From a virus, in the IMG/VR virus record IMGVR_UViG_3300047509_000156, positions 42,482 to 106,481 of that record: a stretch of DNA of 64,000 bases; one strand, written 5' to 3'. Under the pieces are notes generated by a model that saw nothing but the letters and a program-made list of their open reading frames with translations, searched no databases and had not been told where the DNA came from. Position numbers and translations under genes: made by a program. Of this stretch, positions 45,772-62,212 are shown piece after piece (within the stretch, counting starts at the first letter, position 1; every line of letters starts with the position of its first letter).

Positions 45772-45918
45772 AGCGGGTTCTCCTGGGAAAAACGGTTGCC
45801 TTGTTCTCTCTCGACGTTATACTATACGCAGTTGTCTCCTTCTTGTGACAGAGAGATCGGTAGAATCCAGAGAATATCGGTCACAGTCCGGATGAATCGG
45901 CGTATATCAAGTGTCGCC

Positions 45919-45955
45919 ATTTTCCCCCGGCCAAAATCCGGGGGCGGATTGAAAC
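45919..45955 (+). CRISPR. Solitary CRISPR-repeat-like unit in a 5' leader
   Basis: ATTTTCCCCCGGCCAAAATCCGGGGGCGGATTGAAAC, between promoter 45880-45907 and the RBS. Confidence 0.7.
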
Positions 45956-45977
45956 AAGAGAGAAAGGACGGTGAAAC

Positions 45978-46584
45978 GTGGAGACGGCAGAACCCAAGGA
46001 ATCCTGGCGGATTGTCTGGCGAGCGGCGGCGGATTTGATCTCTCTGGAGGAACTGCAATTTATTCAGGTGACATTGGCGAGCGATGATCCGAGATGGGTC
46101 CAGGGCGCCACGACCAGTCCTCCCCCCTTTGCAGGCTGTGGCAGATTGGCCCGTGGAAGCCGCCTGTCTGTTCGGCCTATGTGGAGTGTTCAGCGGCGGC
46201 GGTTGGGGAGAGGCAATCGTCTCGGACACTGAGGATCGGTTTGCGAGACTCTGTTTCGACGTGGACCAGAAACTAGGCGAGCCTGCCGGCGTGAGATTTT
46301 TGCTCAACTGGCATGATGAGGCGCCCCGTGAGGAGGTCCGCCAGTCCTTACTCACAGAGATTACGGACGCCATCTCCTCCCGACTGTCCTCCCTCCGCGA
46401 CCGTCTCGCCAATCTGGGCGGGCAGCGTATCCTCGCCGAGGTGGAGTTGCAGGACTTCCTCGCGGAAGGTGACACGGGACTCTCGCCGGACCCGTCCCGT
46501 GGCAAGGCGGCACAGGAACGCCTCGACACCATCAACGCCGAGTACGCACAGGTGCGCGAGGAATACGCTAGGGCTACGGCGTGA
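45978..46584 (+). pseudogene. Planctomycete-type hypothetical gene split by a +1 frameshift
   Basis: ESWR.VWR..DDPR.VQGATTSPPP continues as LQAVADWPVEAAC in another frame at the C6 run near 46122. Confidence 0.65.
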
Positions 46585-46652
46585 ATTGTTGTCACAACTA
46601 CGAGAATATGCCGTATATCAGGGTGTCGCCCGGAAGCGTAAGGAGAAGAACC

Positions 46653-46925
46653 GTGAGCAAGAAGACAGCGAAAGGTGTTCGCTCAAAGGTAACTCTCTAC
46701 ATCGACAGCGGCGCCGTGCAGGTCTTTGCTGGACAGTTGCATCCCGCCGTGTTCACCGAGGAGGAAGCCTGCCGCATTCTCCTAGCGCATAAGGATCTCC
46801 TTGCCGCGTGTCGCAGCGCCCTGACACTCGTTGCCACAATGCAGAGTATGCCGCCGTCTGTGGATTGCATTGAGAGCGTTCTCGAGCAACTCGAATCCGC
46901 CATCGCCAAGGGAGAATCGCCGTGA
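46653..46925 (+). CDS. Hypothetical protein
   Basis: Own promoter at 46591; AAGGAG RBS; DLLAAC..A...AIAK motif. Confidence 0.6.
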   Translation: MSKKTAKGVRSKVTLYIDSGAVQVFAGQLHPAVFTEEEACRILLAHKDLLAACRSALTLVATMQSMPPSVDCIESVLEQLESAIAKGESP

Positions 46926-47142
46926 TCCAGACTGTGAATAAACTTGTCGGCAAGATCGCCGCCCGTGCCGCCGAGTTGGCCAACATGAAAATCAACCGGC
47001 TCCGTCTGGAGGCACCAGCCTACGAGGAGAGCGTCGCTGCTCATTTGAGGATCGCCAAGTTGGATTTCCCTGACCGAGGAAGACTCATCGAGGCGATTCT
47101 TCTGGAGGAGTTCAGCGAGGAGTTTGATCGGAGTATTGATCC

Positions 47143-47454
47143 ATGACACCCACCACCCCCATCCGTGGCCTCCACGATGTCACGCGAATCGCCAGTGGCT
47201 ACGGCATCCCCTGGCAGGTCGCCCTGACGCCCGAATGTTTCGAGAGGTGTATTCGCGTCGGCGTCTTCTGGAGCAAAGAAGAGGACCGCCTCGCCGACGT
47301 GATTTACGCCCTTGCCGTCGCCCTGAGAAGCTGCCGCTGGTGCTGGCGTATCTACGTACCCTCGGGGACACGAGTTCCCGACGTGGTTAAACTGCGGGCA
47401 CGGCGGGAGGAGAATAACGAGGAAGTACGAATTATCGTGGACCTGGAGGAGTGA
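47143..47454 (+). CDS. DUF6573-like protein
   Basis: DVT..A...GI...VALT...E..RL.DV. Confidence 0.55.
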   Translation: MTPTTPIRGLHDVTRIASGYGIPWQVALTPECFERCIRVGVFWSKEEDRLADVIYALAVALRSCRWCWRIYVPSGTRVPDVVKLRARREENNEEVRIIVDLEE

Positions 47455-47652
47455 TGAACAAATACGAACTGGCAGCCAAGATCGGCGATCTGGCTGAAGA
47501 GGCTGGAGAATCCTACGCCGCCGTTGTCCTGCTCGCCCTGGCCGGAGCGGTAATGATTGGACTGGAGAGAGAGTTGGCCGATGTTTGTGTTCTCGTCTCG
47601 CAGAGACAGAAGGATTTCTGCGACAGAAGTCTCAAGGCAAAGGATAACTAGC

Positions 47653-48141
47653 ATGGGAGACCGTAGCCGCTTCCGACTGTTCGCTCAACTGATCGCCGAG
47701 AGGTTCCCTGACCGCAAGGCGCGAATCGCCGACGTGGCCTGTGGCAAGGGGCAACTGCACAGTGAGTTGCACCTCCTGGGTTATCGCAACGTCGTCTCCT
47801 GGGACAAGCGGAAGAGGAACCTGCGGCGACTTTCAGTGGGATTCCGCTACGAGTGGTTCGACTACCGAAACGCTCCCAGGGGTTACGATCTGGTGGTTGG
47901 GATGCACCCCGACGAGGGCACGGACCACATAATCCTGTACGCCGCCAAGCACAAGGTTCCTTTCCTCGTCTGCCCCTGCTGTGTGCTTCCAAGTGCTGCG
48001 GAGTACGGCGGGCAGCGTGCCTGCTACACGGACTGGATGCGTCATCTCGTCGGTTTGGCACGTTCCCGAAGGATGACGACCGACACCGTATCTTTGCCGA
48101 TGGATGGACGAAAACAGGTAATCGTGGGAGGCTGTCGATGA
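47653..48141 (+). CDS. SAM-dependent methyltransferase-like protein
   Basis: ADVACGKG.L, VVGMHPD, PF.V.PCC. Confidence 0.8.
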   Translation: MGDRSRFRLFAQLIAERFPDRKARIADVACGKGQLHSELHLLGYRNVVSWDKRKRNLRRLSVGFRYEWFDYRNAPRGYDLVVGMHPDEGTDHIILYAAKHKVPFLVCPCCVLPSAAEYGGQRACYTDWMRHLVGLARSRRMTTDTVSLPMDGRKQVIVGGCR

Positions 48142-48473
48142 GCGTCATGAACCTGCGCTGGCGTTCCGATTCCAAGGTGGAACTGACCCTGTGCTGGCCG
48201 GACGGTCGCAGTTTCGTTACCGTTGCCACGAGAAACGGTGATCACATTGACATCGACACGCCTTATTTCCCCGACAAAGGCGACATCGATTCAGTCGAGG
48301 CGATACGCGACGTGACGCAGTGGTTGGCGCTGGGAGCCTGCTGTGCCCAGATGCTTGTCGGGTTCGACCACGCCACACTGGAAGATCTCGTCGCCGGCAG
48401 GAAGATGCTCCAGATTCCCAACCCGATCATCTCCATCACAATCGGGGTGGTGGACGCTGTGGAGGATAAGTAA
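48138..48473 (+). CDS. Hypothetical protein
   Basis: Coupled ORF. Confidence 0.5.
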   Translation: MSVMNLRWRSDSKVELTLCWPDGRSFVTVATRNGDHIDIDTPYFPDKGDIDSVEAIRDVTQWLALGACCAQMLVGFDHATLEDLVAGRKMLQIPNPIISITIGVVDAVEDK

Positions 48474-48973
48474 TGTCAGAACGATTCATGACGCCCGAGA
48501 ACGGGCTTTGCTCCTTTTTGCCGAAACGAAACGATTTGAGGTATTTAAGAGTAAAAAAGGAGCAAAGCCCCGAGAACGCCGACGCCTTCGTGGATTTTCC
48601 GCCCGCCCGCAAGGAATGCCCGAATCATCTTCCCGATGGGAGGCTTTGTGCCCGCTGCCACGGTTTCGGCGGCTGGAACCTGGAATTGAACGCCTACCCG
48701 AAAACGAAGGAGCAAGAAGATGCGATCCGCGACAACCTTCGCAGGTGTCCGGTGACGAACCTGCCCGGTCCCGACATGACGAACGCCGAGTTCCGGCATC
48801 ACTATGTCCACTTCCGCGCCAGTTGCTCCAACTGCAACGGCTGGGGTTGGGTCAAGAAGGAACAGGGCGATCATGTCCACGAGTGGGTGGAGAGCCGCAA
48901 TGTGGGGAAATGCCTGAACGAGTACACCTGTAAGACGTGCGGTGAAAGGCAGACGGTGGATTCGTCGGACTAG
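48473..48973 (+). CDS. Zn-finger protein
   Basis: C..C.G.G motifs. Confidence 0.65.
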   Translation: MSERFMTPENGLCSFLPKRNDLRYLRVKKEQSPENADAFVDFPPARKECPNHLPDGRLCARCHGFGGWNLELNAYPKTKEQEDAIRDNLRRCPVTNLPGPDMTNAEFRHHYVHFRASCSNCNGWGWVKKEQGDHVHEWVESRNVGKCLNEYTCKTCGERQTVDSSD

Positions 48974-49356
48974 CGGATGGTATTGCGCCCGGCCTGCTGG
49001 TCGGGTGTGGATTGAAACGCCTGAAGCGCCATGATCTCCTGTTGCTTCCTCTCGATCTCCCTGGCCTTCTCCTCGCTCTTGCGGAGTTCCGCTGCCTCGA
49101 TGGCGGCGGCCAGGTCATCGGCACAGTGCCCGATCAGTGCCTTGGCCTGGTCGATCGACAGGGTGATCTCTTCGTGGGTCGCCGTGGGTGTCGGTCCGGA
49201 GTGGTGCATAAGAGGAGGAAGGGGCCGGCGGATCTTGATGGACGTACCGGAGGCGAGGATCAAGATGGCGTCGGGAGGGAGGGCTTTCTTGGCCATGTGG
49301 GACAACCTTACGGGTGGGGGCGGAATCGGCTCTGGGAGGCGGTAAACGTGGTTCAT
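48970..49356 (-). CDS. Hypothetical protein
   Basis: Coupled ORF; C-terminus encoded by the antisense of a CRISPR-like repeat. Confidence 0.55.
   Translation of the reverse strand: MNHVYRLPEPIPPPPVRLSHMAKKALPPDAILILASGTSIKIRRPLPPLMHHSGPTPTATHEEITLSIDQAKALIGHCADDLAAAIEAAELRKSEEKAREIERKQQEIMALQAFQSTPDQQAGRNTIR
48983..49018 (+). CRISPR. Solitary CRISPR-repeat-like unit
   Basis: TTGCGCCCGGCCTGCTGGTCGGGTGTGGATTGAAAC; 9-bp stem with 2 G-U pairs. Confidence 0.7.
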
Positions 49357-49553
49357 TCCTTCGGCTTCATGATGTCGGCGTACATGGACTTGGCGTCCTC
49401 GTTGAGGGAGTCGGCCAGTGACTTACCGCCCTCGGCGCGACGCTGCTCGGAGTATCCAATTGCAACTGCTTGTGCTTCTGGTTTTCCCGCCCGGCGTTCC
49501 GTGGCGATGTTCTCGGATCGTGCTTCGTCCGAAGGGGAATGGTTAAGCGGCAT
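49353..49553 (-). CDS. Small phage protein
   Basis: MPL....S..A.S.NI..E..AGKP..QAVAI motif. Confidence 0.7.
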   Translation of the reverse strand: MPLNHSPSDEARSENIATERRAGKPEAQAVAIGYSEQRRAEGGKSLADSLNEDAKSMYADIMKPKE

Positions 49554-49902
49554 GGCTGGCTCCCTCTTTCTCTGGGGCGACGACGGCGAGCAGGTGGCTC
49601 TCCGGCATGATAACCAATGTTTTGCCGTTATGCTCAACCTCGGAGCCCTGGTAGCGCGGGTAAAGGACGGTGTCGCCGACCTTAACCGTCAGAGGGTAGC
49701 GGCCTTCCGTCGCGTATCGCGTCTGGGTCTTGGCGGAGAGCATCTCGGGCACTACGAGTCCTGGCCCAACAGCAACCACGGTGCCGCGCTGCGGCTTATC
49801 CTTGGCCGTATCAGGGATGTACAGACCGCTCTTGGTCCGGTCGGGTGCCTCCAGAGGATCGATGACAACGCGGTCGTTCAGAGGAGAGATCGGGTAACTC
49901 AT
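49543..49902 (-). CDS. groES: Co-chaperonin GroES
   Basis: PLNDRVV, TKSGLYIPDTAKDKPQRG.VVAVGPG, VKVGD.VLY..Y.G. Confidence 0.95.
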   Translation of the reverse strand: MSYPISPLNDRVVIDPLEAPDRTKSGLYIPDTAKDKPQRGTVVAVGPGLVVPEMLSAKTQTRYATEGRYPLTVKVGDTVLYPRYQGSEVEHNGKTLVIMPESHLLAVVAPEKEGASHAA

Positions 49903-49984
49903 GGAATTACTCCTGGTTTCGTGGTCACAGGTTACTACGAGTAGCGTATATGACTCGTCGCCCGTCAGCAACACGGAGAGAAAG

Positions 49985-50370
49985 ATGAATCACATTGAAG
50001 CCTTGCGGAATCTCCAGCAGGAGACTGGGCACCCCGGTCACGAACTGGGTACGTTCCTGCTCCAGAACAGCAACTCGCTGCCTTACCTCGCGGAGCAGTT
50101 GAAGTTTCAATCCCCTCCTTCGCGGGGCACTTCTGCGGACTCAAGGAGAAGAACGATCTGGACGCACACCGCTGGCGCGATTACGAATTGGTGGAAGTCG
50201 GATGGATTAACGGCGTGAATCCGAAGACGGCCCGCTCGCTTGTTGAGGCCGGCGTTCTGGTCGAGGACATGCCTTTCGATATGGACGCGAACACCAACTC
50301 CCATGTTCGCCTACCACGGCTGGAAGAGGTGTATCCGAGAATCGGCAAGCCGCTGATCGATGTTCTTTGA
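49985..50370 (+). pseudogene. Gene apparently interrupted by a CRISPR-like repeat
   Basis: Own promoter at 49924; MNHIEAL..EQLK in one frame and KEKNDL..VEAGVL in another, flanking the repeat. Confidence 0.5.
50104..50140 (-). CRISPR. Solitary type III-like CRISPR repeat
   Basis: GTCCGCAGAAGTGCCCCGCGAAGGAGGGGATTGAAAC, 37 nt with CCCC/GGGG stem. Confidence 0.7.
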
Positions 50371-50703
50371 CTACGGCAGACGAATCTGCCCGCCCAGTAA
50401 TCGCCTCAAGGCGTGAATAATCTCTGCCCGCCGGGAACGCCGGTTCTCGGCAGCCCTGGCGTCCACCCGCGATAAGAAAGCGAGGCTTATACTTCTGAAC
50501 GTGCATCCCAGCAGTCCCTCATTCTCCTCGCTGTCGAGGTCCACGACGGACAGCGGCGGCCGGTCGAGGTGGGACGCGACGGCAGCGAGGACGACGGCCT
50601 TGCGGGTTCTTCCCAGCCGGGCCGCTTCCCGATCAAGGCCGGCGACGATCCAGGAGGGGATCTCGACATAGAGCATCTTCAGGCAGGCTTCGCGTTGCAT
50701 GAG
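50371..50703 (-). CDS. Tandem ribbon-helix-helix protein
   Basis: LD.EA.RLGRTR..V and RVD.RA....RSR..EI; start uncertain. Confidence 0.6.
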   Translation of the reverse strand, partial: LMQREACLKMLYVEIPSWIVAGLDREAARLGRTRKAVVLAAVASHLDRPPLSVVDLDSEENEGLLGCTFRSISLAFLSRVDARAAENRRSRRAEIIHALRRLLGGQIRLP

Positions 50704-50811
50704 TCCAGCATATACAAAGCGCCCGAACCCAAGAAGGAGAAATACCAATGACAGCGACTCAGAAGATCCAGCGATTTCGCTCAAGATTGCCCTCAAAGAA
50801 GCCAAATAGCC

Positions 50812-51189
50812 ATGACCATTACTGACCTGGAAAACCTGCTCGCCCTGGTCCTAGCGGACGGACCCGGCGCCGACGTGCAATTGATCGCTGCCGACGCGGC
50901 AGAGGACGCCGACCGTCCCTTCCTGGCTGAATGTCTGCGCTGGATGCACGCCGGCAAGAAGTGGCCAGATCATGGTGAACATTTGCCAGATGGAGCAACG
51001 TGGAGGTGGTATGAAAGCAGCGATCACCCCGAATCGTCGCGTCTCCCACAATGCGAGGGAGAGTTTGTTAAGTTCTGGCGTTCTTGGAAATGGCATGATT
51101 CGGTTGCTACTGCTATCCGTACCTTGTGGAGCGATTGGGAGACTGCCCGCAGGAGCGGATGGCAGCCGGAAAACCTGTCACAACCCTGA
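50812..51189 (+). CDS. TIGR02996-like protein
   Basis: LLALVLADGP..DVQLIAADAAEDA. Confidence 0.65.
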   Translation: MTITDLENLLALVLADGPGADVQLIAADAAEDADRPFLAECLRWMHAGKKWPDHGEHLPDGATWRWYESSDHPESSRLPQCEGEFVKFWRSWKWHDSVATAIRTLWSDWETARRSGWQPENLSQP

Positions 51190-51244
51190 CCTTACGACGT
51201 ATCTCTAATATCGCCCCTAACCCGCCAAGAGGAGGGATGAGACG

Positions 51245-51544
51245 ATGACACCCACAGTTACGCGACAGACGATCCTGATTCGGCCGGTCGGCGGTAGTGA
51301 CGACACCGGCACCTGGGACGAGTTCCCGCTGGACGACCAGGCCGAGGCTCGCGTGTTGGATCGCTGGCCGGATGCCGAGATCCGGGGACAGGTCGCCATC
51401 AGCCGCGCGACCTACAAACAGGCTCCTTCGGTGATCGGTGCAGACCTGACACCGATCTGCCGCCAGCAGGTGGAGGGAGAGATCCGGTCGCGCATGAGTC
51501 AGCATCCGGTACAGGTCGCGTCGATCCGTAGCTACTACGTCTGA
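51245..51544 (+). CDS. Hypothetical cassette gene
   Basis: Promoter at 51177 plus CCCGCCAAGAGGAGG leader. Confidence 0.65.
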   Translation: MTPTVTRQTILIRPVGGSDDTGTWDEFPLDDQAEARVLDRWPDAEIRGQVAISRATYKQAPSVIGADLTPICRQQVEGEIRSRMSQHPVQVASIRSYYV

Positions 51545-51608
51545 CCCCCACCCCCTCCGGCCAGCGGCACCGGCGGGGATAACGAGGCCGCTGAGGGAGG
51601 GGTGGGAG

Positions 51609-51848
51609 ATGGAAAAGTCAACGCAGTGTATGCACGGCCGTGCATATTGGTCACAGGGAGGGTGCGTAGTTCGCTCAATGCACTCTGAATCGAAAAGCGT
51701 GTACGAGTTCACCTTCGCTTCGGAAGCGGAGGCTCAACAGGCTGTCGAATCCAGGGGCCCCTATTCGACCTGGGGTGCATCGGCATTCACTGATGCACAC
51801 GACGGAGGCAGGGGGCCGCGTCCGCTTCGCGTCGAAAAGGTCAGCTAA
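51609..51848 (+). CDS. Hypothetical protein
   Basis: GGAGG RBS. Confidence 0.5.
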   Translation: MEKSTQCMHGRAYWSQGGCVVRSMHSESKSVYEFTFASEAEAQQAVESRGPYSTWGASAFTDAHDGGRGPRPLRVEKVS

Positions 51849-51895
51849 CCCCGCCCCTCGCCCCCGTGCGGCCTGGCCGCTGAGGAGGATCACCC

Positions 51896-52093
51896 GTGAA
51901 ACTCACCATGCGACTCTTGGAGGCGATCATCGAAATGGCGACTTGTGTCGAGGCCGGTAGCGTCGATGACTACCGTGGTGGTTCGGAGTCCGTGGCTGAC
52001 CGCAAGGCATACGAGGACGCAATCGACGCCGGTCTGTGGGCACGGCAGGAGAAGCGTCGGCGCGGGCAGCGAAGGATGGAGGCTCACCGATGA
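51896..52093 (+). CDS. Hypothetical protein
   Basis: AGGAGG RBS. Confidence 0.55.
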   Translation: MKLTMRLLEAIIEMATCVEAGSVDDYRGGSESVADRKAYEDAIDAGLWARQEKRRRGQRRMEAHR

Positions 52094-52350
52094 AGGAACT
52101 CAGTCTCAGACAGGCCCAGCGCTGCGAGGAAGCCCGCGAGCCGGTATGCAAGTGCCGGTGCGGTGGGAGACTGCACGGCGCCAAGAGGAACGGCGGCAGC
52201 GCGTCCTTCTTTGGCGAACTGCCCGAGGACGACCCGCACCATGTTGACACGCCCGCGCAAAAGCGCGAGAAGCGTAATGCGAAGAAGCGAGCGGAGACGG
52301 AAGCGCGATTTGAGGCGCGCATGAAGTACCTGGGAGGACTGACCAGTTAA
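52090..52350 (+). CDS. Cys-rich small protein
   Basis: C..A....C.C.CGG..HG. Confidence 0.65.
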   Translation: MKELSLRQAQRCEEAREPVCKCRCGGRLHGAKRNGGSASFFGELPEDDPHHVDTPAQKREKRNAKKRAETEARFEARMKYLGGLTS

Positions 52351-52705
52351 GGAGCTGCTTGACCTTGCCTCGTGGATCTCCCGCCACCCGCGATTCAGGA
52401 GCCTCTTGCGGTTCCTGCCGGGTGGGGGATTTGTGCGGATCACCGCCGGCCGTAATTGGCTGGACGTGGCAGATGCGGCCGGGGTGTTGCGGAGTGTGCT
52501 GATAAGCCGTACAGCCCGATCGCGCATCGCCCGCCTCTTCGAGAGCGAAGACTTGGGACCATCAACCCTCGCCGCCGCCACCCACGCCCTTCGCCAGCGT
52601 GCGGCACAGCTGCGACGTAGGTATCCCGAGGGGTAATTTTCTGTCACAACGGCAGCGTTCGACCGTATATCTGATCGTCGCCCTACCCGCCAAGGAGATA
52701 GAACA

Positions 52706-52933
52706 GTGGAGAATCACAGCAAATTCCTCGCCCGTGCCCTGTACTGGAGCGAGGGAAACAAGGAATTCCGCCGGCAGAATCAGTTCTGGGACTGGCGCCT
52801 TTCCGCCTGCCCGTATCCTGTCCTCTCGGAAGCCTGGGAGTGCTGGCGTACCGGCTGGCTCGCAGGGATGGAGGAAGCCAGGGGTGAGCGGTATAGCGAT
52901 ACACCGGATGGGGACGGCGACGTTCCTTTTTGA
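52706..52933 (+). CDS. Rmf/CrpP-like small protein
   Basis: CPY......W..GW motif; promoter at 52643. Confidence 0.55.
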   Translation: MENHSKFLARALYWSEGNKEFRRQNQFWDWRLSACPYPVLSEAWECWRTGWLAGMEEARGERYSDTPDGDGDVPF

Positions 52934-52999
52934 TCGGTCACAATCGCCCGATGGTTGCGTATATAAGTTGTTCGCCTCAAACAGCCAAGGGAGAGAAAC

Positions 53000-53563
53000 A
53001 TGACGACTGCACAAGAGATTGAAACACTGGCCGCGCAGATGGGGTTGAGCCTAAAGACGGAATTCGTGCCCTTCTCGCGGTCCCGTAACAAGGGCGAGAA
53101 ATCGCCTTCGCTCAACTGGAAGGTGACGCTATGGAAGGGACTGGCTGGGCCGGCTGTCCCGTTGCCTTCAATCGAAGCGCACGCCATCTTGACGACCGAC
53201 TACAGCGCCGGTTGCGCCCACTGTCCGAGTTACGAGCAGGGAAATAATAACGCCCCTCGCGCCGTGGCGGTCGATGCCGAGTGCGAGACCGGGTACGCTC
53301 ATAGCATCATGGGCATGAATACAAGGAAAACCGGCAAGCGGATTGCGCCGTCCTTCGCGGACGTGCTGTATTCGCTGGTGATGGATGCGGGCGTGATCGA
53401 CTACGGCAACTTTGAGGAGTGGGCCAGCGCTTTCGGCTGCGACATCGACAGTCGCACAGCGGAGCATACTTACCGCTCCTGCCTGGAAATCGCGCTCAAA
53501 CTGCGAAACGGCATCGGTGAGGAGGCATTGGCAAAACTCCGCGAAGCGTTCACCGACTACTAA
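53000..53563 (+). CDS. Hypothetical phage protein
   Basis: P...DVL.SL..DA...FEEWA..FG.D.DSR.A...Y..C; promoter at 52937. Confidence 0.75.
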   Translation: MTTAQEIETLAAQMGLSLKTEFVPFSRSRNKGEKSPSLNWKVTLWKGLAGPAVPLPSIEAHAILTTDYSAGCAHCPSYEQGNNNAPRAVAVDAECETGYAHSIMGMNTRKTGKRIAPSFADVLYSLVMDAGVIDYGNFEEWASAFGCDIDSRTAEHTYRSCLEIALKLRNGIGEEALAKLREAFTDY

Positions 53564-53624
53564 CCGTCACATTATCGCCCCTCTGTCGTATCTACCCTGT
53601 CGCCCCTTCTTTGGAGGAAAAGTC

Positions 53625-53801
53625 ATGTTTGAGGATTTGACAGCGGTAAAAGCCTGGCTGTTGTGGGCCGGACTCGGAAAGCAGATCGACACGCTATCCG
53701 AGGGCCTTTGCTACGAAGATGACGGCGATACTTATCGCCTGATCGGTAAATGCGAAGAGATGCGTGCCGCCCTACTTCCCTTGTGGGAAGGCAAACTGTA
53801 A
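53625..53801 (+). CDS. Small cassette gene
   Basis: Promoter at 53566; GGAGG RBS. Confidence 0.55.
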   Translation: MFEDLTAVKAWLLWAGLGKQIDTLSEGLCYEDDGDTYRLIGKCEEMRAALLPLWEGKL

Positions 53802-53834
53802 CCCTATCGCCCCTTCTTAGGAGGTTGTGGAACC

Positions 53835-54047
53835 ATGCCGGAAACGATTGGCCCTGTACTGGTGGAAGCGGAATTGCTGGAGCAACTGGCAGCGAAGTGG
53901 GAAGATACGGCGGCTGAATTTCGCTACGAAATACACGGCACCAACGAGCAGACTCCTAGTTACGGATGGCTGCAAGGAAACGCCAGATCGTACCGTATGT
54001 GCGCCGAAGAACTCCGTGCCCTCATCGCCTCCAAGAAAGGACCGTAA
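53835..54047 (+). CDS. Small hypothetical protein
   Basis: AGGAGG RBS. Confidence 0.55.
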   Translation: MPETIGPVLVEAELLEQLAAKWEDTAAEFRYEIHGTNEQTPSYGWLQGNARSYRMCAEELRALIASKKGP

Positions 54048-54117
54048 TCTAGGCTGTCACAAGGAAAAGATCCGGACGTATATGAGTTGCCCACAACATC
54101 CCGCCAAGGAGAAAACC

Positions 54118-54660
54118 ATGAGCAAGAGAGAACTGCTTTCGATCCGTACCGCACTAATTCAGGACGACAATCCCGATCTGTCCTACCTCGGAAAGTGGGC
54201 CAGTCGGTCCAGGGGACAACACTGGATCGACCGCGACACGGGAACGCTCTACGACCCCGACGGCAACGAGATCGCCACGCACGAAGACGGTGGGGTGTTC
54301 TTGGACCGCAACGCCTTCGAGCTGTTCATCGTGGGCCAGTGGGCCGGTGATGAGAACGTGAAACTGTCCGATGCCATCGAGTACTCTTTCCGCGACTGGA
54401 AGCGCATGGAAGCCTTTAACGACAACGAATGGGAGATGTACGGCGTGGTGTGCCGGGCCAAGTGGAAGGATGAGGCGGGATACGAGCATACGATCGACTC
54501 GCCTGGACTGTGGAGAGTCGAATCGGACAGCGGCAAGGACTACTTCCGCGAGATAGCCGAAGATCAGGTGTCCGAGATCCGCGCCGATCTCGAAGCGTTG
54601 GGATTCTCCGAGGAGGAGGTAGCCGCTGCGATGGACCTGGAAACGATCGAGTCGGAATAA
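54118..54660 (+). CDS. Acidic hypothetical phage protein
   Basis: D.D.SYL, S.GLW.VESDS...Y; promoter at 54056. Confidence 0.7.
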   Translation: MSKRELLSIRTALIQDDNPDLSYLGKWASRSRGQHWIDRDTGTLYDPDGNEIATHEDGGVFLDRNAFELFIVGQWAGDENVKLSDAIEYSFRDWKRMEAFNDNEWEMYGVVCRAKWKDEAGYEHTIDSPGLWRVESDSGKDYFREIAEDQVSEIRADLEALGFSEEEVAAAMDLETIESE

Positions 54661-54720
54661 CCTGTCACACCTTCGCCCGTTGTTCGTATCTCATTCGTCG
54701 CCCCAATACGAGGACAGGCC

Positions 54721-54921
54721 ATGATTGCAACCATCAAAGAGGAATGCGCGTGTGCCTGGTGCAATTCGCCGCTCTATGTGGGCGACAGGGCCATATTCGA
54801 TGACGGCAAGGACGGCCTTTATCGCTGGTGCTGTAATCCCAGGTGCCGCGACCGCGCCCGCCGCAAAGCCGGCCTGCCCACACCGATGCCTGCCCCGGCG
54901 CCGGTTGTATGGGACGATTAA
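54721..54921 (+). CDS. Small Cys-rich cassette gene
   Basis: Promoter at 54664. Confidence 0.6.
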   Translation: MIATIKEECACAWCNSPLYVGDRAIFDDGKDGLYRWCCNPRCRDRARRKAGLPTPMPAPAPVVWDD

Positions 54922-54982
54922 CTGTCACACCTTCGCCCTTCAAGCGTATATCCCGGTGTCGCCCGTTCCAGGGAGAAAGCCA

Positions 54983-55528
54983 GTGGACAAGATCAGCCAG
55001 ACCGCTACCATTGTGGACTACCACGCCATCCAAGAGGCCATCGACCGCGAACCGCTCGAAAGTTACCATCGGCTCGCCTTGGCTGATTGGGCGGAAGAAC
55101 ACGGCGACGCGATCACGGCCAAGAGGCAACGCGACATCGCAGTTGCCATCGAAGATCCCAGCAATTACGCCGTCGCCTACTGGCAGGGAAGCGAAGCGCT
55201 GGCGCACGCTAGGGGCAAGGAAAAGAAGCTGGCCGGCAACACCTACCTCTATCGCATCGACCGCGACCGGCTAGGAATCCGCCTGCACAATACTACCATC
55301 GTGGAGATTCACGCGGACGGTACTTTTACGCTCAATTCCGGCGGATGGTTGACGGCGGTAACGATGGATCGCATCAGCGAGAACAGTCCGGCCCGGTTGA
55401 CTGGTCGCAACGCACAGCGCCGCCGGAACAGCGAAGACATCGAAGGCGTCTGGTGGCTCCGCTTCGACGGCAAGGTCGTGCCTTTCTTCGACGGAATCAG
55501 GATCGACGCTTACGGATGGGTGATTTGA
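54983..55528 (+). CDS. TIGR02996-like N-terminus fused to a phage domain
   Basis: AIDREP.....LALADWAEEHGD, then LH.T.IV....LNSGGW.T..T..RI. Confidence 0.75.
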   Translation: MDKISQTATIVDYHAIQEAIDREPLESYHRLALADWAEEHGDAITAKRQRDIAVAIEDPSNYAVAYWQGSEALAHARGKEKKLAGNTYLYRIDRDRLGIRLHNTTIVEIHADGTFTLNSGGWLTAVTMDRISENSPARLTGRNAQRRRNSEDIEGVWWLRFDGKVVPFFDGIRIDAYGWVI

Positions 55529-55588
55529 TCCGGTCACAAAGCGCCACGGATGGCGTATTCCCTTCGCCCGCATTCCTCTGGAGAGAAC

Positions 55589-55738
55589 ATGAGACAGCCA
55601 GTGTTGCTTGACCTGTTCTGTAAAGCCGGCGGAACGTCGCATGGCTACGCTCGCGCTGGATTCGACGTGATCGGCGTTGATATTGAACCGCAGCCAAACT
55701 ACCCGTTTAACCCCATCGTCCAGGCTGATGCGCTATAA
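55589..55738 (+). pseudogene. Truncated DNA cytosine methyltransferase
   Basis: LLDLFC.AGG...GY..AGF.V.GVDI.PQPNYPF..QADAL then stop; catalytic PPCQ absent. Confidence 0.8.
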
Positions 55739-56103
55739 GTGCTTCGCGACCTGATCTCTGGTATCGGTATCCAGACGCGCGGCAGGATGCTGAAGCGCTA
55801 CCTGTTGGAGCGCTACCCTTATGGCTGGGGAAGCTACACTTTCCCCATTGAGCTAGGCAAAACAGCCGGCCAATCGTGGAGCGGTTCCGGCAACAGCATT
55901 TCCGCTCGCGATATTGATTCACGTTACTAGAGAACGTTGGTCACAACCATCTCGCCAGAGCGTATATGAGGCATCGCCACAAACAAGGGAGAAGACCATG
56001 AAACAGGCAATCGAAACACTGGCCGGCGAGATGGGACTGACACAACCTCGCCCCTGATGCGTATATGTGTTGTCGCCTTCAACCCGCCAAGAGGACAGAA
56101 GAC

Positions 56104-56721
56104 ATGAGCAATCACGGCATCGACTACGGCATGGGAACGACGAACATCGACCGCGAAACGGGCATCCGCTACGGGGTTATCTCCGTCCATGAGGTAACGC
56201 AAGCGTGGTGCGATTCGTCGGAAGCGGACTACGGCGAACCTCGTTGCCCTGAGTGCGGCAATGATGCGGTTGATGGGGATTCCGCTATCGACAATGACGG
56301 TATCTTGGACGATCTGCGGGAAGAGGGCACGTTCACGCCGGAAGAAATCGAAGACGGCGACAGGCAGTATCTCGGATGGAAGATCTTGCACCACGCTTGC
56401 GGCGACTACGCTTGCGATTCCTGTCGTCTGCTGTTCGACGGCGAAGACGCCTACGGTGACGAACCGCTCTCCTTCACCTTGGACGATGGGGAGTACAAGG
56501 CGGAACAGGGTAGCGACGGTGATATCTTCATCTTCTCCAGCCCGTACTACACCTACGCTCAGTTCTGCTCCCCCTGCGCTCCTGGCGCGTGCTACCTGAT
56601 GAATCCGACCGATACGGATGGACCGAAAGCGTACTGTTTCTCCCACGATTGGTTTGATGGAGGCAAGGCGCCGTATCCCGTGTACCGTGTCTCGGATGGA
56701 ACGCTGGTCGAGCCGGAATAA
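56104..56721 (+). CDS. Acidic Cys-rich phage protein
   Basis: N.D.ETGIRYGVI, SPY...CSPC.PGA; promoter at 56039. Confidence 0.75.
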   Translation: MSNHGIDYGMGTTNIDRETGIRYGVISVHEVTQAWCDSSEADYGEPRCPECGNDAVDGDSAIDNDGILDDLREEGTFTPEEIEDGDRQYLGWKILHHACGDYACDSCRLLFDGEDAYGDEPLSFTLDDGEYKAEQGSDGDIFIFSSPYYTYAQFCSPCAPGACYLMNPTDTDGPKAYCFSHDWFDGGKAPYPVYRVSDGTLVEPE

Positions 56722-56801
56722 CAACCGTCCGCGCTGGTCACAATGGGCCGGCGCGGACGTATCTTGTCCACCCGAACAATCCTAGGCAAAGAGGTGATGC
56801 G

Positions 56802-57467
56802 ATGCGAGGAACAATGGACATTGACCGGATGGCGGAAGAGGCAATGGGTAACTGGCGCCGTTTCGAGTCATTCTGCTGGGATCGTGCTTACGAGTTAGAA
56901 GACGCCGATTCGTGGTGCATTGTCTACGGCGCCAACCGTGATAGCGGGCTACTTGACCAGAGTAACGCGGAGGCAACCGACAAGGCGCTTGAGTCGTTCA
57001 TGGATGGGGATAACCCCGATGTCCTCTCGGAACATCATGGACACTGGGGATGCGGATGGGTAGATGGATGGGCAATCCGCGTCCGCGACAGTCAAGGCGC
57101 CTTGACTCCGGCATTCCGCGCTTACTGTGAACTGCAAGAGGCGCTTGAGGATTACCCCGTTCTGGACGAGGAAGACTACTCCCGTCGCGAGTACGAAGCA
57201 ACCATTGAAAACCTGTCCGATGCGGCGCGTGGTCTCGACTACGAATTGCCAGAGGGGTGGGAAAGCGAAGTCTTTTCGTGGTTGTGGGATCATGGCAGCA
57301 TGCTGGAAGCGCTGGGGATTCCTCTGGAATGGTGCGATGAATGGGACGACTGTAGCGAGTGCAACGGACTACTTCGGCATCAACCCGATTCCTACGGATG
57401 GACACCTTCCTATTCGGAAGAACTCTTGCGGTCCGGCGAGATGGTTTGTCTAGAGTGCGCCGAATAG
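56802..57467 (+). CDS. Acidic phage protein
   Basis: RDS.LL..SN, HW.CGWV, L.DYPVLDEED.S..EYE; promoter at 56737. Confidence 0.75.
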   Translation: MRGTMDIDRMAEEAMGNWRRFESFCWDRAYELEDADSWCIVYGANRDSGLLDQSNAEATDKALESFMDGDNPDVLSEHHGHWGCGWVDGWAIRVRDSQGALTPAFRAYCELQEALEDYPVLDEEDYSRREYEATIENLSDAARGLDYELPEGWESEVFSWLWDHGSMLEALGIPLEWCDEWDDCSECNGLLRHQPDSYGWTPSYSEELLRSGEMVCLECAE

Positions 57468-57530
57468 GTCATACCCCATCGCCCCGTCCGTATCTCACTC
57501 GCCCAACATTCCCGCCAAGGGAGATAAGAG

Positions 57531-57749
57531 ATGTTCACACCGCGACACGTCGCCGGGCTGATCCGCCGGCTTCCCCGGAATGCCAGTGTATGCGTCCAGG
57601 TTGAGTTAGGCCGCACGAACGGCCGGATAACCGGCTCGTTGCTCCCCGTCCCGCGTATCGTCGCTCTACGTGCCATCCGGAGGCTCTACGGGACGGGGGC
57701 AAAGGTGGCGGTATCGGATTTCTGCGGGGATCTTGTGCTGGGAATGTAG
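57531..57749 (+). CDS. Small cassette gene
   Basis: Promoter at 57468 plus CCCGCCAAGGGAG leader. Confidence 0.6.
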   Translation: MFTPRHVAGLIRRLPRNASVCVQVELGRTNGRITGSLLPVPRIVALRAIRRLYGTGAKVAVSDFCGDLVLGM

Positions 57750-57809
57750 GTCACAACGGCGCCGGATGAGCGTATTTGAAGTGCCCAAAATCACCAAGAG
57801 GAATCGATC

Positions 57810-57983
57810 ATGCACGAGACGAACGCCACTATCCGCGATCGGGACGGGTTTCTGACGCGGGGCAACGTGTACCGGGAAACGGGACAAATCGGCCGGTACA
57901 TGGTGGAGCGCTTTTACGTTCTCCGTGGTTGCGCCGGACGTATGTACGTCAAGATGTTCAACGGTCGGTGGGTGGAAGCCTAG
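57810..57983 (+). CDS. Small cassette gene (57 aa, not in ORF track)
   Basis: Promoter at 57750; GAGGA RBS; stop abuts the next promoter. Confidence 0.55.
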   Translation: MHETNATIRDRDGFLTRGNVYRETGQIGRYMVERFYVLRGCAGRMYVKMFNGRWVEA

Positions 57984-58036
57984 GTCACAAATATCGCTCC
58001 GCGTATCTTGTTCATCGCTAACCGGGAGGACGGATC

Positions 58037-58198
58037 ATGTGGATTCTGAGTTATCTGAGGCAGTATGGGAATCGGTTCACGGAGTTCCGTACAGAGTACA
58101 CCAGCATTGAAGCGCTCGAAAGCGCGATTGCCATGCTGAGCGGGCAAAGCGGTGTTTCGGCTATGAATGTCACATTCGACAACCGGGCGCATATCTGA
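58037..58198 (+). CDS. Small cassette gene (53 aa, not in ORF track)
   Basis: Promoter at 57984; GGAGG RBS. Confidence 0.5.
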   Translation: MWILSYLRQYGNRFTEFRTEYTSIEALESAIAMLSGQSGVSAMNVTFDNRAHI

Positions 58199-58234
58199 GG
58201 TAGAGAACACCAATCCGCCAAGAGGGAGAGAACA

Positions 58235-58741
58235 ATGCAGACAACGGAAACGGTCGAGAATCTCGCGAGTATGCTTGCCGCCGTCGAAAGTGCCCCGATG
58301 GACATTGACGCAAGGCGCATTCTCGCGGATGCCTACATGGACGCGCAGCAAGACGGCATGGCAGAACATCAGCGTAAGATCGTCGCCGGACTGGAGAAGG
58401 TCAAGGATTGGCGCGGCGCAACGATCGGCAAGGGACACGCGATCTATCGCACTCTTACCGATCGGCTCAAGTATCGGAAGAAGGAAGGGCGTGTTCACGT
58501 TGCCCTCTCCGTGAGCATCACGGGAACGTGGTGGGATGGTGGTTCTAGGTCGTCGTTCTACGCTCTGGATCTCACGACCGGCGCACTCTCCCCAATCGCC
58601 GGTCCACAATGGGGAGATGCAAAGCCTAGTATCGAGCATCCCATCCGCAAGGGAATTGCCATCGTGGAGTGCGGTACGTTCTGCGGTAAACCGGCGACGG
58701 CGCGAATCACTCTGCATCCCGATGACGCATGGCGAATCTAA
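58235..58741 (+). CDS. TIGR02996-like N-terminus fused to a phage domain
   Basis: LAAVESAP.D...RRILADAY, then T.WDGGSRS...F.GK. Confidence 0.7.
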   Translation: MQTTETVENLASMLAAVESAPMDIDARRILADAYMDAQQDGMAEHQRKIVAGLEKVKDWRGATIGKGHAIYRTLTDRLKYRKKEGRVHVALSVSITGTWWDGGSRSSFYALDLTTGALSPIAGPQWGDAKPSIEHPIRKGIAIVECGTFCGKPATARITLHPDDAWRI

Positions 58742-58819
58742 CCTGTACGCTCCGCGTCACAACAGACGGCGCGGAGCGTATCTTGATTGCCCATAACCAC
58801 GAATGAGGGAGAAGGACCA

Positions 58820-59041
58820 ATGAAGGTTTGCGAAACATGCGGTAATGACATCGACGGCGCTCGCGATGGGGAGAATACCTGTCGTGATTGCGATGAATTT
58901 GCGACCATTGGCGTTGTCGGTGCGCTGCAAGCCGCAAAGCGCCGCAAGAGGAACGCTAGCAGACGGGCAAGGGAAAACGCTCTGCGGTCGTGCGGACTAG
59001 TCAAGGTGAGAGGTGCGCTTGGCGGGACGTATTGGGAGTAA
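58820..59041 (+). CDS. Small phage protein
   Basis: GLVKVRGALGGTYWE C-terminus; promoter at 58756. Confidence 0.7.
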   Translation: MKVCETCGNDIDGARDGENTCRDCDEFATIGVVGALQAAKRRKRNASRRARENALRSCGLVKVRGALGGTYWE

Positions 59042-59119
59042 CGTGTAGGACCGGCGAGCAACCACGCGAAAGAGCGTACAATAGTGGTTGCTCGCCGTTT
59101 CTCTTTAGGTAATCACCAT

Positions 59120-59641
59120 ATGTCGGCACGCGGAAGAGGCGGAATCACCCTGGAACAAGTCATGGTCCGCAGGCAGACGGCATGGCAACTGCGGTGCAAA
59201 GGTTTACCGTACCGCGACATTGCGAAGGAGATGGGGTTATCGTATCGCTCTGCTTTCCGGCATGTTGAGAAGATGCGCGAATGGTGTCTGAAGAACGCCA
59301 CGCAAGACTATGTTGCCCGTTTGCTGGAGAAGGAAGAACAATTCCTTGAGCTAGCCAACCTGGCAAGGACAGCATACGAGCGTAGCGTTGAACAGGGCAC
59401 ACCGGACGGCTCCTGGCTCGATCGTGCCGCTAACTATCTGGGGAAAGCCGCCGCCCTCTGGCAGCCAACGCAAGCAACGGCCAGTGTAACCGTCACCACG
59501 ACCACATCCGATGGAGATTCCGCCGCGCTTGCACGGTTCTTCGCTGGGGTATTCTCCCAGCAGAAGGCGCCTGAAGCGCTTCCAGCCGTCGTGGAAGTAG
59601 AGTCTCGGAAGTTAGAAGCCGAACCTACGGACGGGAAGTAG
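59120..59641 (+). CDS. Putative terminase small subunit (HTH)
   Basis: RR..A..LR..G..YR.IA..MG.S HTH plus helical core. Confidence 0.6.
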   Translation: MSARGRGGITLEQVMVRRQTAWQLRCKGLPYRDIAKEMGLSYRSAFRHVEKMREWCLKNATQDYVARLLEKEEQFLELANLARTAYERSVEQGTPDGSWLDRAANYLGKAAALWQPTQATASVTVTTTTSDGDSAALARFFAGVFSQQKAPEALPAVVEVESRKLEAEPTDGK

Positions 59642-60127
59642 TCTCACCTAATGCCCGCCAATCGTGATTAATGGCACCAAGGGCGCGAGCAAGGCGCATT
59701 CGGCCTACAGGTCGTCTTGCGGAACGATCGGCGTTTATACGCGATCCTGTACGTTCACTTTGGTTTACAAAGTGAACAGCACTTAAGTCCTTAAAAATTG
59801 CCGTGGTTACGTCGCGAACTCCGGGAATTCAAACGATCGTTTGAGGGGAAAACGGCCTTTTGCCCTGTCACAACCTGGAGAAGCGAGCGTATCTATAGTA
59901 TCGCCTTCAACCTCAGACACGGGAGAACATCAATGGCCGCTGTTGTTCGGTCCGCCCTCCGCGCTCTCTATGCTCGCCAGACGAGACGAGCTAATCTCCG
60001 TGCTCGCCGCATCCTGGCATGGCGCAGAGCACGCACCGCCAAGTAACCCTATTACGCACGCGCCGTCACAACACGACGGCGCGTGCGTATCTCTGTTAGT
60101 CCGTTCAACCCGCCAAGGAGACCGATC

Positions 60128-60655
60128 ATGCTTCATGACACTATCCACGCCAGCGATGACACCACGGCCATCGACGTTGTGCCGGCCCGCAAACCCCGCA
60201 GCCGCAAGCCGGCTCAGACGGTCAAGGCGCCGTCGGCTGCCGCAACCTCCCGTGCCTACGCTGCACAGCGTGCGGAGCGCTGGAGTCGGGCCTACACCTA
60301 CAGCGCCGTCGTCCTGTCGTCCGGCCTCAACGCCTACGCTGCCGCAACCGAGTCTCACGCCGTCAACCCGTACATGATGGCCGCATCCGCCCTGATCGGT
60401 GCCGTTATCCCCGTTCTCGTGTGGATGCTCGGCTCTGTCGTTGCTTGGAGCTACAAAGCCGGCCACCGCAGGCTGTCCTACGTCACCGGCGCCGTTGCCG
60501 GTTGCGTCCTTGCTCTGTCCGTCGTTCACGTCGCAGGCGCCCTTGGTGCTCTCACTGGCTCCGGAGTCATCCTCAGCGCCCTGCTCGCCATCGGCATCGA
60601 TTGCGGCCTGGTTGCGAGCGAAGCGACGGCCATCCTGGTTTCCGTTGCAGAGTAG
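60128..60655 (+). CDS. Multi-TM membrane protein
   Basis: Four hydrophobic segments; promoter at 60065. Confidence 0.7.
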   Translation: MLHDTIHASDDTTAIDVVPARKPRSRKPAQTVKAPSAAATSRAYAAQRAERWSRAYTYSAVVLSSGLNAYAAATESHAVNPYMMAASALIGAVIPVLVWMLGSVVAWSYKAGHRRLSYVTGAVAGCVLALSVVHVAGALGALTGSGVILSALLAIGIDCGLVASEATAILVSVAE

Positions 60656-60733
60656 CCCAATCCCGCCCCCGTCACAACCGACGACCGCCAGCGTATCTCT
60701 TGTGCCCACCCTTCGCCCGCAAGGAGCATCCTA

Positions 60734-60922
60734 ATGTGTTACGACAATGGTTCTCGCGTCGCGATCGTCGTCCCCTTCGGCCCCAACGCGGGGCAGGTTT
60801 GTGGGCACGGTACCGTGATCGGGTTCATCACCAGCGGCATCGACGGGCGATGCTACTTCGTGCGGGAGGACGACGGCACGACAGTCCAGCACAGCGATTC
60901 GTGGATGCGCAAGGCGCGGTGA
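60734..60922 (+). CDS. Small SH3-like cassette gene
   Basis: Promoter at 60671; G.RV..GTV..Y.V..DDG. Confidence 0.55.
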   Translation: MCYDNGSRVAIVVPFGPNAGQVCGHGTVIGFITSGIDGRCYFVREDDGTTVQHSDSWMRKAR

Positions 60923-61118
60923 CGGCCAGCGGGGGAATCGCCCATCCCCGGTACTGGCGCTTCGCCGGAGGATTGCGGGGAGGGGGCGGTGGGTGTCCTT
61001 CTATGCCCATACCATTTCTCGTCACAACGTGGTGACAGGGTACGGTACTGGCGCTCGCAGCGATATTCGCTTCCTGCCCTCGATGGGTGTCTTCCCGTGC
61101 CTCCGACATTACCTGTCG

Positions 61119-61580
61119 CTACGCCGTGACGCCGGCCTCCACGAACGCCTTGCAGATTCGTCGAAGTCTCTTGACGACCCACTCCCAACTACTGTCGTAG
61201 AAGTGCGAGTAGTCGTCGTCCGGTTCCCACAATCGATCGCGATACCGGCTCTTGAAGATGTAGGCGGACATGACGTGCCGGCACGTTCCCATCGTGGGCG
61301 GGTTGGGGATAAACGACGCAATGACGCTGAACTTTGACCGGCGGGAGAGACAGATAATCGTCTTGTCCGTCTTTCGTGTCAGGTAAACCAACTCATCGGC
61401 CGTTTCAAAGGAATGGGCCAGATCGATCCACGAGCGAAGCAGTTTATCCCCCCACGAGGCCATCAGACGCCATACGGCACTCTCTGGATTGCCGCGTTCT
61501 TCGAGGAGATCGGCCATCGCTAACCATGCCAGTGGGGAGCGGTCGATAAGTATAGCCTTCTCCTGAGGTGTGTGTCTCAT
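61119..61580 (-). CDS. TIGR02996-like protein
   Basis: AILIDRSPLAWLAMADLLEERG; promoter at 61649-61674. Confidence 0.7.
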   Translation of the reverse strand: MRHTPQEKAILIDRSPLAWLAMADLLEERGNPESAVWRLMASWGDKLLRSWIDLAHSFETADELVYLTRKTDKTIICLSRRSKFSVIASFIPNPPTMGTCRHVMSAYIFKSRYRDRLWEPDDDYSHFYDSSWEWVVKRLRRICKAFVEAGVTA

Positions 61581-62107: not shown

Positions 62108-62212
62108 AACTCCTGATCCTTGCCGACGCCTGCCTGATCTACCTCATCGCTCTGTCGCTCTACGGGCACACAGAGGCCAGGACCTATTTTAAGGAATGCC
62201 TGGAGGAATCCG

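Follow-up and report, generated by a model that had tools for sequence, protein, structure and literature searches.

Solitary repeat units (SRUs), single CRISPR (short palindromic repeats, clustered and regularly interspaced) repeats found in viruses, are credited to Faure et al. 2019 in a later paper (PMC10651486), and RNA anti-CRISPRs (Racrs) were described by Camara-Wilpert et al. 2023 (PMC10651486). Here we describe a 37-nt unit of this kind, S7, located inside a small protein-coding gene of a complete phage genome, IMG/VR record IMGVR_UViG_3300047509_000156. The window that we analyzed is the last 64 kb (64,000 nt, positions 42,482 to 106,481) of this 106,481-bp genome, which has direct terminal repeats of 126 bp; positions below are those of the window. 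Like SRUs and Racrs, S7 is a single repeat look-alike that keeps its hairpin and handle in a cas-less phage (Cas6, RAMP and Cas1 had no match among the genes of the 106-kb genome), and the same phage carries other units, one of them directly behind a promoter. S7 differs from the described elements in lying inside a protein-coding gene, whose reading frame it shifts, and in being antisense to the only predicted transcript. The published survey tool SRUFinder searches intergenic DNA only and applies a 90%/90% rule (PMC10651486). S7 would be masked by that intergenic-only search, and under the 90%/90% rule it is a partial match (26/37 exact, 34/39 gapped) to the array repeat of the Myxococcota genome G001 described below. 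Because published surveys masked coding regions, intragenic and antisense copies have been left unconsidered. The SRU-type element is already known; the intragenic, frameshifting, antisense position of S7 is new.

Other systems offer partial parallels. Marraffini and Sontheimer are said to have shown in 2010 that type III systems discriminate self from non-self by tag:anti-tag pairing. The predicted mRNA of the gene cassette around S7 would have a similar layout, phage sequence followed by the complement of the 8-nt handle, which is the configuration that keeps Cas10 inactive. To our knowledge, the gain of an anti-tag by a phage through uptake of a repeat has been proposed as a rare escape route and has not been documented. 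Virus-borne mini-CRISPR arrays were reportedly described by Medvedeva et al. in 2019. Such arrays have been cited as a form of inter-viral conflict (PMC10651486). As in those arrays, host-type repeats are found here on a cas-less virus, and the phage also has a repeat-26 nt-repeat arrangement at 22992-23091; S7, however, has no second repeat within 150 nt and therefore no defined spacer, and it does not qualify as a CRISPR array or mini-array.

In type II systems, the anti-repeat of the trans-activating CRISPR RNA (tracrRNA) is a host component needed for processing. The RNA predicted here likewise contains the complement of a CRISPR repeat and could pair with the precursor of the CRISPR RNA (pre-crRNA), but the S7 complement is carried by a phage, is that of a type III/Cas6 repeat and would interfere instead of helping. 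Varble et al. reportedly described in 2019 how phages recombine with CRISPR arrays where spacer and protospacer match, as well as CRISPR-locus transduction in staphylococci. Recombination of that type would explain how array DNA enters a phage with an exact spacer/repeat border, whereas at the S7 locus only a single repeat with 4 bases was kept and a matching spacer is hypothetical. We know of no account of how phages obtain solitary CRISPR repeats.

Unit S7 and its counterparts in type III-B arrays

Unit S7 reads GTTTCAATCC...GCGGAC on the plus strand (50104-50140). The repeat had no match in 100 shuffles and is single-copy in the phage genome, even allowing three mismatches. The Rfam family CRISPR-DR10 (RF01323) matches S7 over its entire length (positions 1-37 of 37, minus strand) with 32.4 bits (E = 1.4e-5), a score below the curated gathering threshold of 39 bits. 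Across ~185,000 species genomes, the exact 24-nt core of S7 is found in a single one, a Myxococcota metagenome-assembled genome (MAG; G001), with 94 occurrences, in CRISPR arrays. Over its first 26 nt, in plus-strand writing, S7 is identical to the array repeat of this MAG; the remaining 11 nt differ, and a gapped alignment reaches 34/39 identity. Hairpin and 8-nt handle make up these 26 identical bases; S7 is predicted to fold in the same way as the array repeat, and the tail AUUGAAAC is retained. Judged by its sequence, S7 is a genuine, complete type III CRISPR repeat unit.

The MAG arrays contain 51, 45 and 17 repeats of 37 nt, separated by spacers mostly 39-41 nt long. A conserved leader is found at the GAC side of all three arrays, which indicates that the transcribed repeat ends in ATTGAAAC, that its handle is AUUGAAAC, and that the canonical strand in the phage is the minus strand. 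The contig of one array also encodes Cmr2/Cas10, Cmr3, Cmr5, three RAMPs and Cas6, a gene set that defines the locus as type III-B, plus Cas1. The label 'type III-like', assigned to the repeat by an earlier sequence-only reading of the window, is borne out by this locus. In the same contig (L038/L049, G001:C96), the III-B Cmr operon with Cas6 adjoins two large MopE-repeat/beta-helix proteins, and an AEP-TOTE primase-domain protein adjoins the Cas1 region.

A sister repeat in a second Myxococcota genome shares 31/38 identity with S7 and is closer to S7 in the distal part, and the S7 repeat family was found in these two Myxococcota genomes only. A search for the core with up to three mismatches in 401 sampled Myxococcota returned only the one MAG; the 24-nt core is absent from the viral and metagenome contigs searched, and the exact 37-nt repeat is absent from the genome contigs searched. 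Comparing 20 kb of the window with 61 relatives of the MAG yielded repeat matches, groES-level matches and GC-rich chance matches, with three matches in one of these genomes (G410) located outside arrays. Because the exact S7 variant is missing from the collections searched and the 110 spacers of the MAG arrays are without a phage match, the host is probably an unsampled relative.

Two resemblances concern the flanks of S7. The left flank at 50081-50100, CCTTACCTCGCGGAGCAGTT, resembles the interior of the repeat unit, in the same orientation, at 15/20 positions (p ~0.03 against shuffles); it could be a homeologous patch that aided capture, or chance. At one repeat of a second Myxococcota array (L056; G263:C133, ~8552-8598), the spacer ends flanking the repeat match the phage flanks of S7 (50092-50145) in 9/10 junction-nearest bases. 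The next best of 131 repeat instances reaches 6/10. Over their full length the spacers do not match (16/41 and 15/36); the resemblance is odd, though probably a chance one.

The gene around S7

S7 has in all likelihood been inserted, as host-derived DNA, into a gene that was formerly continuous. Two open reading frames (ORFs) meet at the repeat. ORF A, which is very probably the original N-terminus of the interrupted gene, translates to a peptide ending in ...LPYLAEQLK at 50104; as present now, its frame reads through the repeat to a stop at 50216-50218. ORF B reads KEKNDLDAHRWRDYELVEVGW... (KEKNDLDAHRW...) from 50143, in a different frame, and stops at 50370. AAG triplets at 50102-50104 and 50143-50145 border the repeat, and deletion of 50105-50145 (41 nt) gives a single 114-codon ORF. 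The sequence-only reading had described exactly this: ..YLAEQLK, the antisense repeat, a continuation KEKNDLDAHRW.. in another frame, and one ORF restored by removing 41 nt between the AAG triplets. All of it, coordinates included, was reproduced. In every register, the inferred insert equals one whole repeat plus 4 bases. The joined ORF aligns gapless across the junction to the family members P0004 and P0005, with LLQ, A and K in register.

Base composition places the switch of coding frame at the repeat. GC content at codon positions 1/2/3 is 0.62/0.30/0.78 in ORF A (49985-50104, frame 2), a contrast unmatched by any off-frame 40-codon window of the phage's long ORFs, and 0.67/0.33/0.69 in ORF B (50143-50367, frame 1), with an unusually low GC at position 2 common to both. 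The profile match described below also places the switch at the repeat, and the frameshift does not map elsewhere. The strong coding periodicity of ORF A, its promoter-like motif and its ribosome-binding site (RBS) argue for ORF A as the missing N-terminus.

ORF B contains the conserved core of a protein family. Among near-length proteins, it matches small proteins of 64-91 aa at 52-78% identity (E = 6.5e-31 to 7e-12), the closest being P0004 and P0005 (75-78% identity); a 59-aa product of the phage contig, P0003, is present in the protein collection and scores E = 2.9e-22 in the family search. The family profile gives ORF B ~90 bits in a match starting at about position 41-43 of 97, and the conserved core VEVGxINGVxPRTAxSLV...HVRLP is present. 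Of the 54 family members that a profile search of 1.8 billion representatives returned, nearly all are single ORFs of short length (63-110 aa) and two are large multi-domain proteins. Nearly all members match the profile from the first residue, with the N-terminus MTxxQxxLLKR; P0014-P0016 have N-terminal extensions, and P0007, P0059 and P0023 are natural short members of 63-65 aa. One distant member (L040) is intact in a phage-like metagenome contig. Relatives of ORF B were found neither in 401 Myxococcota genomes nor in IMG/VR by an alignment query, and a protein query of IMG/VR gave one weak 17-residue match, which we disregarded as probably spurious.

The homologs define where the gene was hit. 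None of the fetched members (P0004-P0060) has the repeat-encoded peptide, in either frame. The alignment of close homologs begins at KEKNDL, 45 nt upstream of the earliest start available in frame 1, and homology that begins 45 nt before any start indicates a gene truncated or interrupted exactly at the repeat. Since family homology begins at the AAG right after the repeat, an origin of the repeat in place is implausible, as the sequence-only reading had supposed.

The AlphaFold model of the close relative P0009 (pLDDT, the predicted local distance difference test, of 89) has a long helix at the N-terminus and, after it, a compact helix/strand domain. Foldseek with this model returned only weak winged-helix (MarR/ArsR-like) hits with E >= 0.4, Pfam and PHROGs gave only a sub-threshold HhH_5 match for the interrupted gene, and a PDB sequence search with this gene gave nothing. 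The family probably comprises small, putative DNA-binding proteins, winged-helix or helix-hairpin-helix (HhH)-like. Its core may still be made in the phage, from TTG 50188 or GTG 50191.

Several results weigh against an insertion as clean as the joined ORF suggests. Profiles detect no similarity between ORF A and the family N-terminal helix (MTxxQxxLLKRxIxAxR), and joining ORF A to ORF B adds 0 bits to the family match. The N-terminal motif MTxxQxxLLKR is found nowhere in the phage, and ORF A has no homologs, even in a search against longer proteins. No pre-insertion allele or close phage relative was found in IMG/VR or in 50,697 GenBank phages, the last of which have no match to the 2.9-kb locus. 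Frame restoration by deletion is weak evidence alone, because the edges of the insert are free and 37, 38 or 39 nt could always be fitted; a deletion chosen in this way is not a test. These results would be expected if ORF A and ORF B were unrelated neighbors, or if a 5'-truncated gene had been fused to foreign DNA. Against such arrangements, the 45 nt of homology before any start mean that ORF B is not an intact separate gene, and ORF A has its own promoter motif, RBS and strong coding signal and shares the low GC at codon position 2 with ORF B. Anchored gapless alignment of ORF A to the family N-terminus gives a weak score, in the top 3.5% of a null of phage peptides, with LLQ and A..K in register, and the extensions of P0014-P0016 show that family members may begin with additional residues. 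With homology between ORF A and the N-terminus of the family undetected, the event may have been more complex than a clean insertion. Of the earlier proposal that repeats are acquired by insertion, the frame switch and the single-ORF homologs free of the repeat segment uphold acquisition for S7, and the undetected homology of ORF A and the missing pre-insertion allele weaken the clean form of the event.

Three artefactual or mechanistic candidates were rejected. Programmed frameshifting would call for a slippery site, and no X_XXY_YYZ site is seen in or before the repeat. An assembly artefact does not fit a clean 41-nt insert, seven such units and a complete, terminally redundant genome unlike a chimera. 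Off-target spacer integration by Cas1-Cas2 is expected to duplicate a target of repeat length, whereas the duplication here spans only 3 bp. Calculated from the spacing of arrays with a period of 77 bp, a 41-bp fragment taken at random includes a whole repeat in only 5/77 cases (~6%). The presence of a whole repeat in the insert despite these odds implies selection or a border-specific mechanism.

Predicted transcripts, origin and possible roles

We searched the 106-kb genome and a reversed control for promoters with the regular expression GTCAC-N(12-22)-CGTATNT. The motif GTCACA-N15-CGTATNT occurs 25 times in the genome versus 0 in the control, with a spacing that is nearly always exactly 15 nt, and most copies precede small plus-strand genes, mainly at 45880-63541. 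The set looks like a phage-specific, extracytoplasmic function (ECF)-like promoter regulon, and one of its copies points into the interrupted gene. On the minus strand upstream of S7, we found neither the phage motif, even with <=3 mismatches, nor a sigma-70-like site. The candidate source of a minus-strand transcript, which would carry the repeat in sense orientation, is solely the ribbon-helix-helix (RHH)-like ORF that converges with the interrupted gene. This ORF matches a PHROG transcriptional repressor (E = 0.005) and has coding-like GC at codon position 3; no promoter was found for it, and it has no relatives in IMG/VR. Its two halves stand in tandem, resembling a single-chain Arc/CopG-type repressor.

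With the motif on the plus strand and none on the minus strand, the cassette mRNA is the only transcript that the sequence supports, and transcription at S7 is predicted to proceed from the plus strand only. The mRNA would carry the reverse complement of the repeat. On the plus strand, ...GCAGTTGAA is directly followed by GTTTCAAT, the complement of the 8-nt crRNA 5' handle. As S7 is antisense to the promoter-driven mRNA, this mRNA would contain a type III 'anti-tag'.

S7 probably has some role in CRISPR evasion, and the specific mechanism that we favor, tentatively and at less than even confidence, is escape by means of this anti-tag. A repeat from a type III-B (Cmr/Cas6) array of a Myxococcota-like host would have entered a transcribed gene of the phage by copying, in a patch of ~41 bp made of one 37-nt repeat and 4 bases, with AAG microhomology shared by the junctions. 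The patch would fall at the end of the gene's first helix and shift the reading frame. The recipient gene would be a self-contained cassette, with phage promoter motif, RBS, ORF and terminator-like hairpin, and the repeat would lie antisense within it. Its mRNA would pass from phage sequence directly to GUUUCAAU, the exact complement of the crRNA 5' handle AUUGAAAC.

Such a patch could arise by copy-choice or gene conversion between a replicating phage genome and a host array, at a spacer targeting the cassette mRNA. With copying seeded by the spacer, the left junction would coincide exactly with the spacer/repeat border, and the antisense orientation would be forced, functional type III spacers being complementary to mRNA. 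Return to the phage template would take place via the AAG microhomology. The targeted site would then resemble an antisense transcript of the array, still bound by the host complex but unable to activate Cas10. S7 would in that case be an escape scar by self-mimicry, paid for with an accessory DNA-binding protein, the core of which may still be made from the internal start. This course of events presumes a host array that held a spacer against the left flank of S7 and a host Cmr complex that obeys the anti-tag rule. Experiments on a type III-A system found that Cas10 stays inactive when an anti-tag is present and that immunity to a plasmid target is abolished, and the creation of a tag match was named there as one of two possible escape routes (bioRxiv 10.1101/369744).

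Several points tell against escape by anti-tag. An anti-tag needs only 8 nt, and a patch ending 4 nt past the complete repeat is not predicted. Its protection extends only to the adjacent 35-40 nt. The 110 spacers of the MAG arrays have only chance-level matches of 13-19 nt in the whole phage, none of which fits the left flank; the host-spacer match to a flank that the sequence-only reading had suggested looking for did not emerge from these related arrays, and the collections searched have no array with the exact repeat. Lastly, the six units other than S7 are positioned for sense transcription, which points to decoy use in this phage. A wider generalization, that solitary type III repeats in phages are born by spacer-guided copy-choice or gene conversion, leaving an anti-tag behind the protospacer, and that such scars could later be co-opted as RNA decoys, with S7 as a fresh case inside a gene, is one to which we give little credence.

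A decoy function of S7 itself is doubtful. Read-through on the minus strand from the RHH gene towards groES would produce an RNA with the sense hairpin and handle, to be bound and cut by host Cas6; Cas6 or Cmr subunits would be tied up or loaded with a harmless guide, and the disruption of the gene would be collateral. The 26 nt relevant to Cas6 are identical to a real type III-B repeat with the fold kept, the unit is solitary in a phage without Cas6, RAMP and Cas1 genes, and both genes flanking the interrupted gene are on the minus strand. Six further sense-oriented units, one of them 11 nt behind a promoter, and the experimental validation of Racrs for several CRISPR types (PMC10651486) also fit a decoy. 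However, neither kind of promoter is found upstream on the minus strand, the sole predicted promoter yields antisense RNA, and decoy transcription would have to converge with the cassette mRNA. Described Racrs are also intergenic, often directly downstream of a promoter (PMC10651486), whereas S7 lies inside an ORF.

It is unlikely that S7 is a neutral scar, functionless and not yet decayed, left by array DNA (or the unit of another phage) captured through illegitimate recombination into a dispensable gene. The junctions do share only 3 bp of microhomology, the interrupted gene belongs to an accessory cassette and lies among small cassettes, and the freshly coding appearance of its two halves would fit a recent event. 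The ~6% chance that a random array fragment includes the whole repeat speaks against capture without function, and the seven units in this phage, with hairpin and handle kept across diverged copies, argue for selection on such elements.

Still less probable is an anti-repeat RNA, in which the 37 complementary nt of the cassette mRNA would pair with repeats of host pre-crRNA and either block Cas6 processing or draw in RNase III, leaving fewer functional crRNAs. The orientation relative to the only predicted promoter fits this idea, and it accounts for retention of the whole repeat, which pairing needs and an anti-tag does not. But Cas6 binds repeats co-transcriptionally, so that an antisense RNA must compete, a frameshifted ORF is an odd vehicle for a regulatory RNA, and a literature search aimed at anti-tag escape found no precedent for such an anti-CRISPR. 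The explanations that dispense with a simple insertion (unrelated neighbors, a truncated gene fused to foreign DNA, or programmed frameshifting) are very improbable in view of the frame and homology evidence given above.

Other units, neighboring genes and significance

The string GTTTCAATCC is found in 7 copies in the window versus 0.22 expected and is absent from the rest of the genome. Each copy is the start of a 37-nt unit, and the seven units form three sequence classes. The canonical strand ends in GGATTGAAAC in all seven; a clear hairpin followed by GGAUUGAAAC is seen in six, and the unit at 24863 folds weakly. S7 is the sole member of its class, the only unit matched here to arrays of known cas type (III-B), and the only one of the seven antisense to its nearest promoter motif. 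Arrays of the other two repeat classes were not found in the 61 Myxococcota genomes searched.

Among the six sense-placed units, four lie within a minus-strand operon below a promoter motif at 25550, and five look intergenic or 3' untranslated. The unit at 45919 starts 11 nt past a promoter-like motif at 45880-45907, in sense orientation, and positions 45880-45955 appear, by layout, to be the cleanest Racr-type arrangement in the phage. The unit at 48982 starts 8 nt past the stop of a Cys-rich gene on the plus strand; it is located at a convergent junction and, in antisense, encodes residues close to the C-terminus of a minus-strand ORF (48970-49356) that is strongly coding. The two diverged units at 22992-23091, spaced as repeat-spacer-repeat, occupy an intergenic gap of the minus-strand operon. 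The unit at 20405 is in frame within the N-terminal extension of a minus-strand ORF (20184-20477), residues 33-76 of which match Pfam RMF (ribosome modulation factor). No start codon separates this unit from the RMF domain, and for this reason it may be another unit inside a gene, here in frame and sense-oriented. The S1 and S6 ORFs have no relatives in IMG/VR, and the S1 ORF matches only itself in the protein collection. The coordinates of all features are collected in Table 1.

Table 1. Positions of the repeat units, the interrupted gene and its neighbors in the window.
Feature	Position	Strand	Remarks
Seven solitary repeat-like units	20405-20441, 22992-23028, 23055-23091, 24863-24899, 45919-45955, 48982-49018, 50104-50140		
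Solitary CRISPR repeat unit S7	50104-50140	-	37 nt; canonical reading ends in ATTGAAAC
groES (Cpn10)	49543-49902	-	divergent from interrupted gene; Pfam Cpn10, E = 2.3e-26
Promoter-like motif GTCACA-N15-CGTATAT	49924-49951	+	ends 33 nt before ATG 49985; points into interrupted gene
ORF A, putative 5' half of interrupted gene	49985-50104	+	40 codons, frame 2; ATG 49985; RBS GGAG 49975-49978
Inferred 41-bp insert	50105-50145 (equally 50102-50142 and registers between)		AAG/AAG flanks; four equivalent registers
ORF B, conserved family core	50143-50370	+	frame 1; no ATG/GTG/TTG before 50188
Possible restart codons TTG 50188 / GTG 50191	50188-50193	+	would give 59-60-aa core-only protein
Terminator-like hairpin, 3' end of interrupted gene	50341-50357	+	consensus scan; count no higher than in shuffles
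Tandem RHH-like ORF	50371-50700	-	convergent with interrupted gene; RHH_1 / FitA-like RHH, E ~0.03

The S7 locus records an acquisition event that is datable and mechanistically readable, through a patch the length of a repeat, 3 bp of microhomology and homologs that are single ORFs. Should S7 be no more than a decoy or a scar, it adds an ordinary further example to a known class. If escape by anti-tag is true, the captured repeat would serve as a 'self' mark in phage mRNA against RNA-targeting type III systems, and not as a decoy. It would then represent a natural escape from type III immunity, which, deletion aside, is regarded as difficult to evade.

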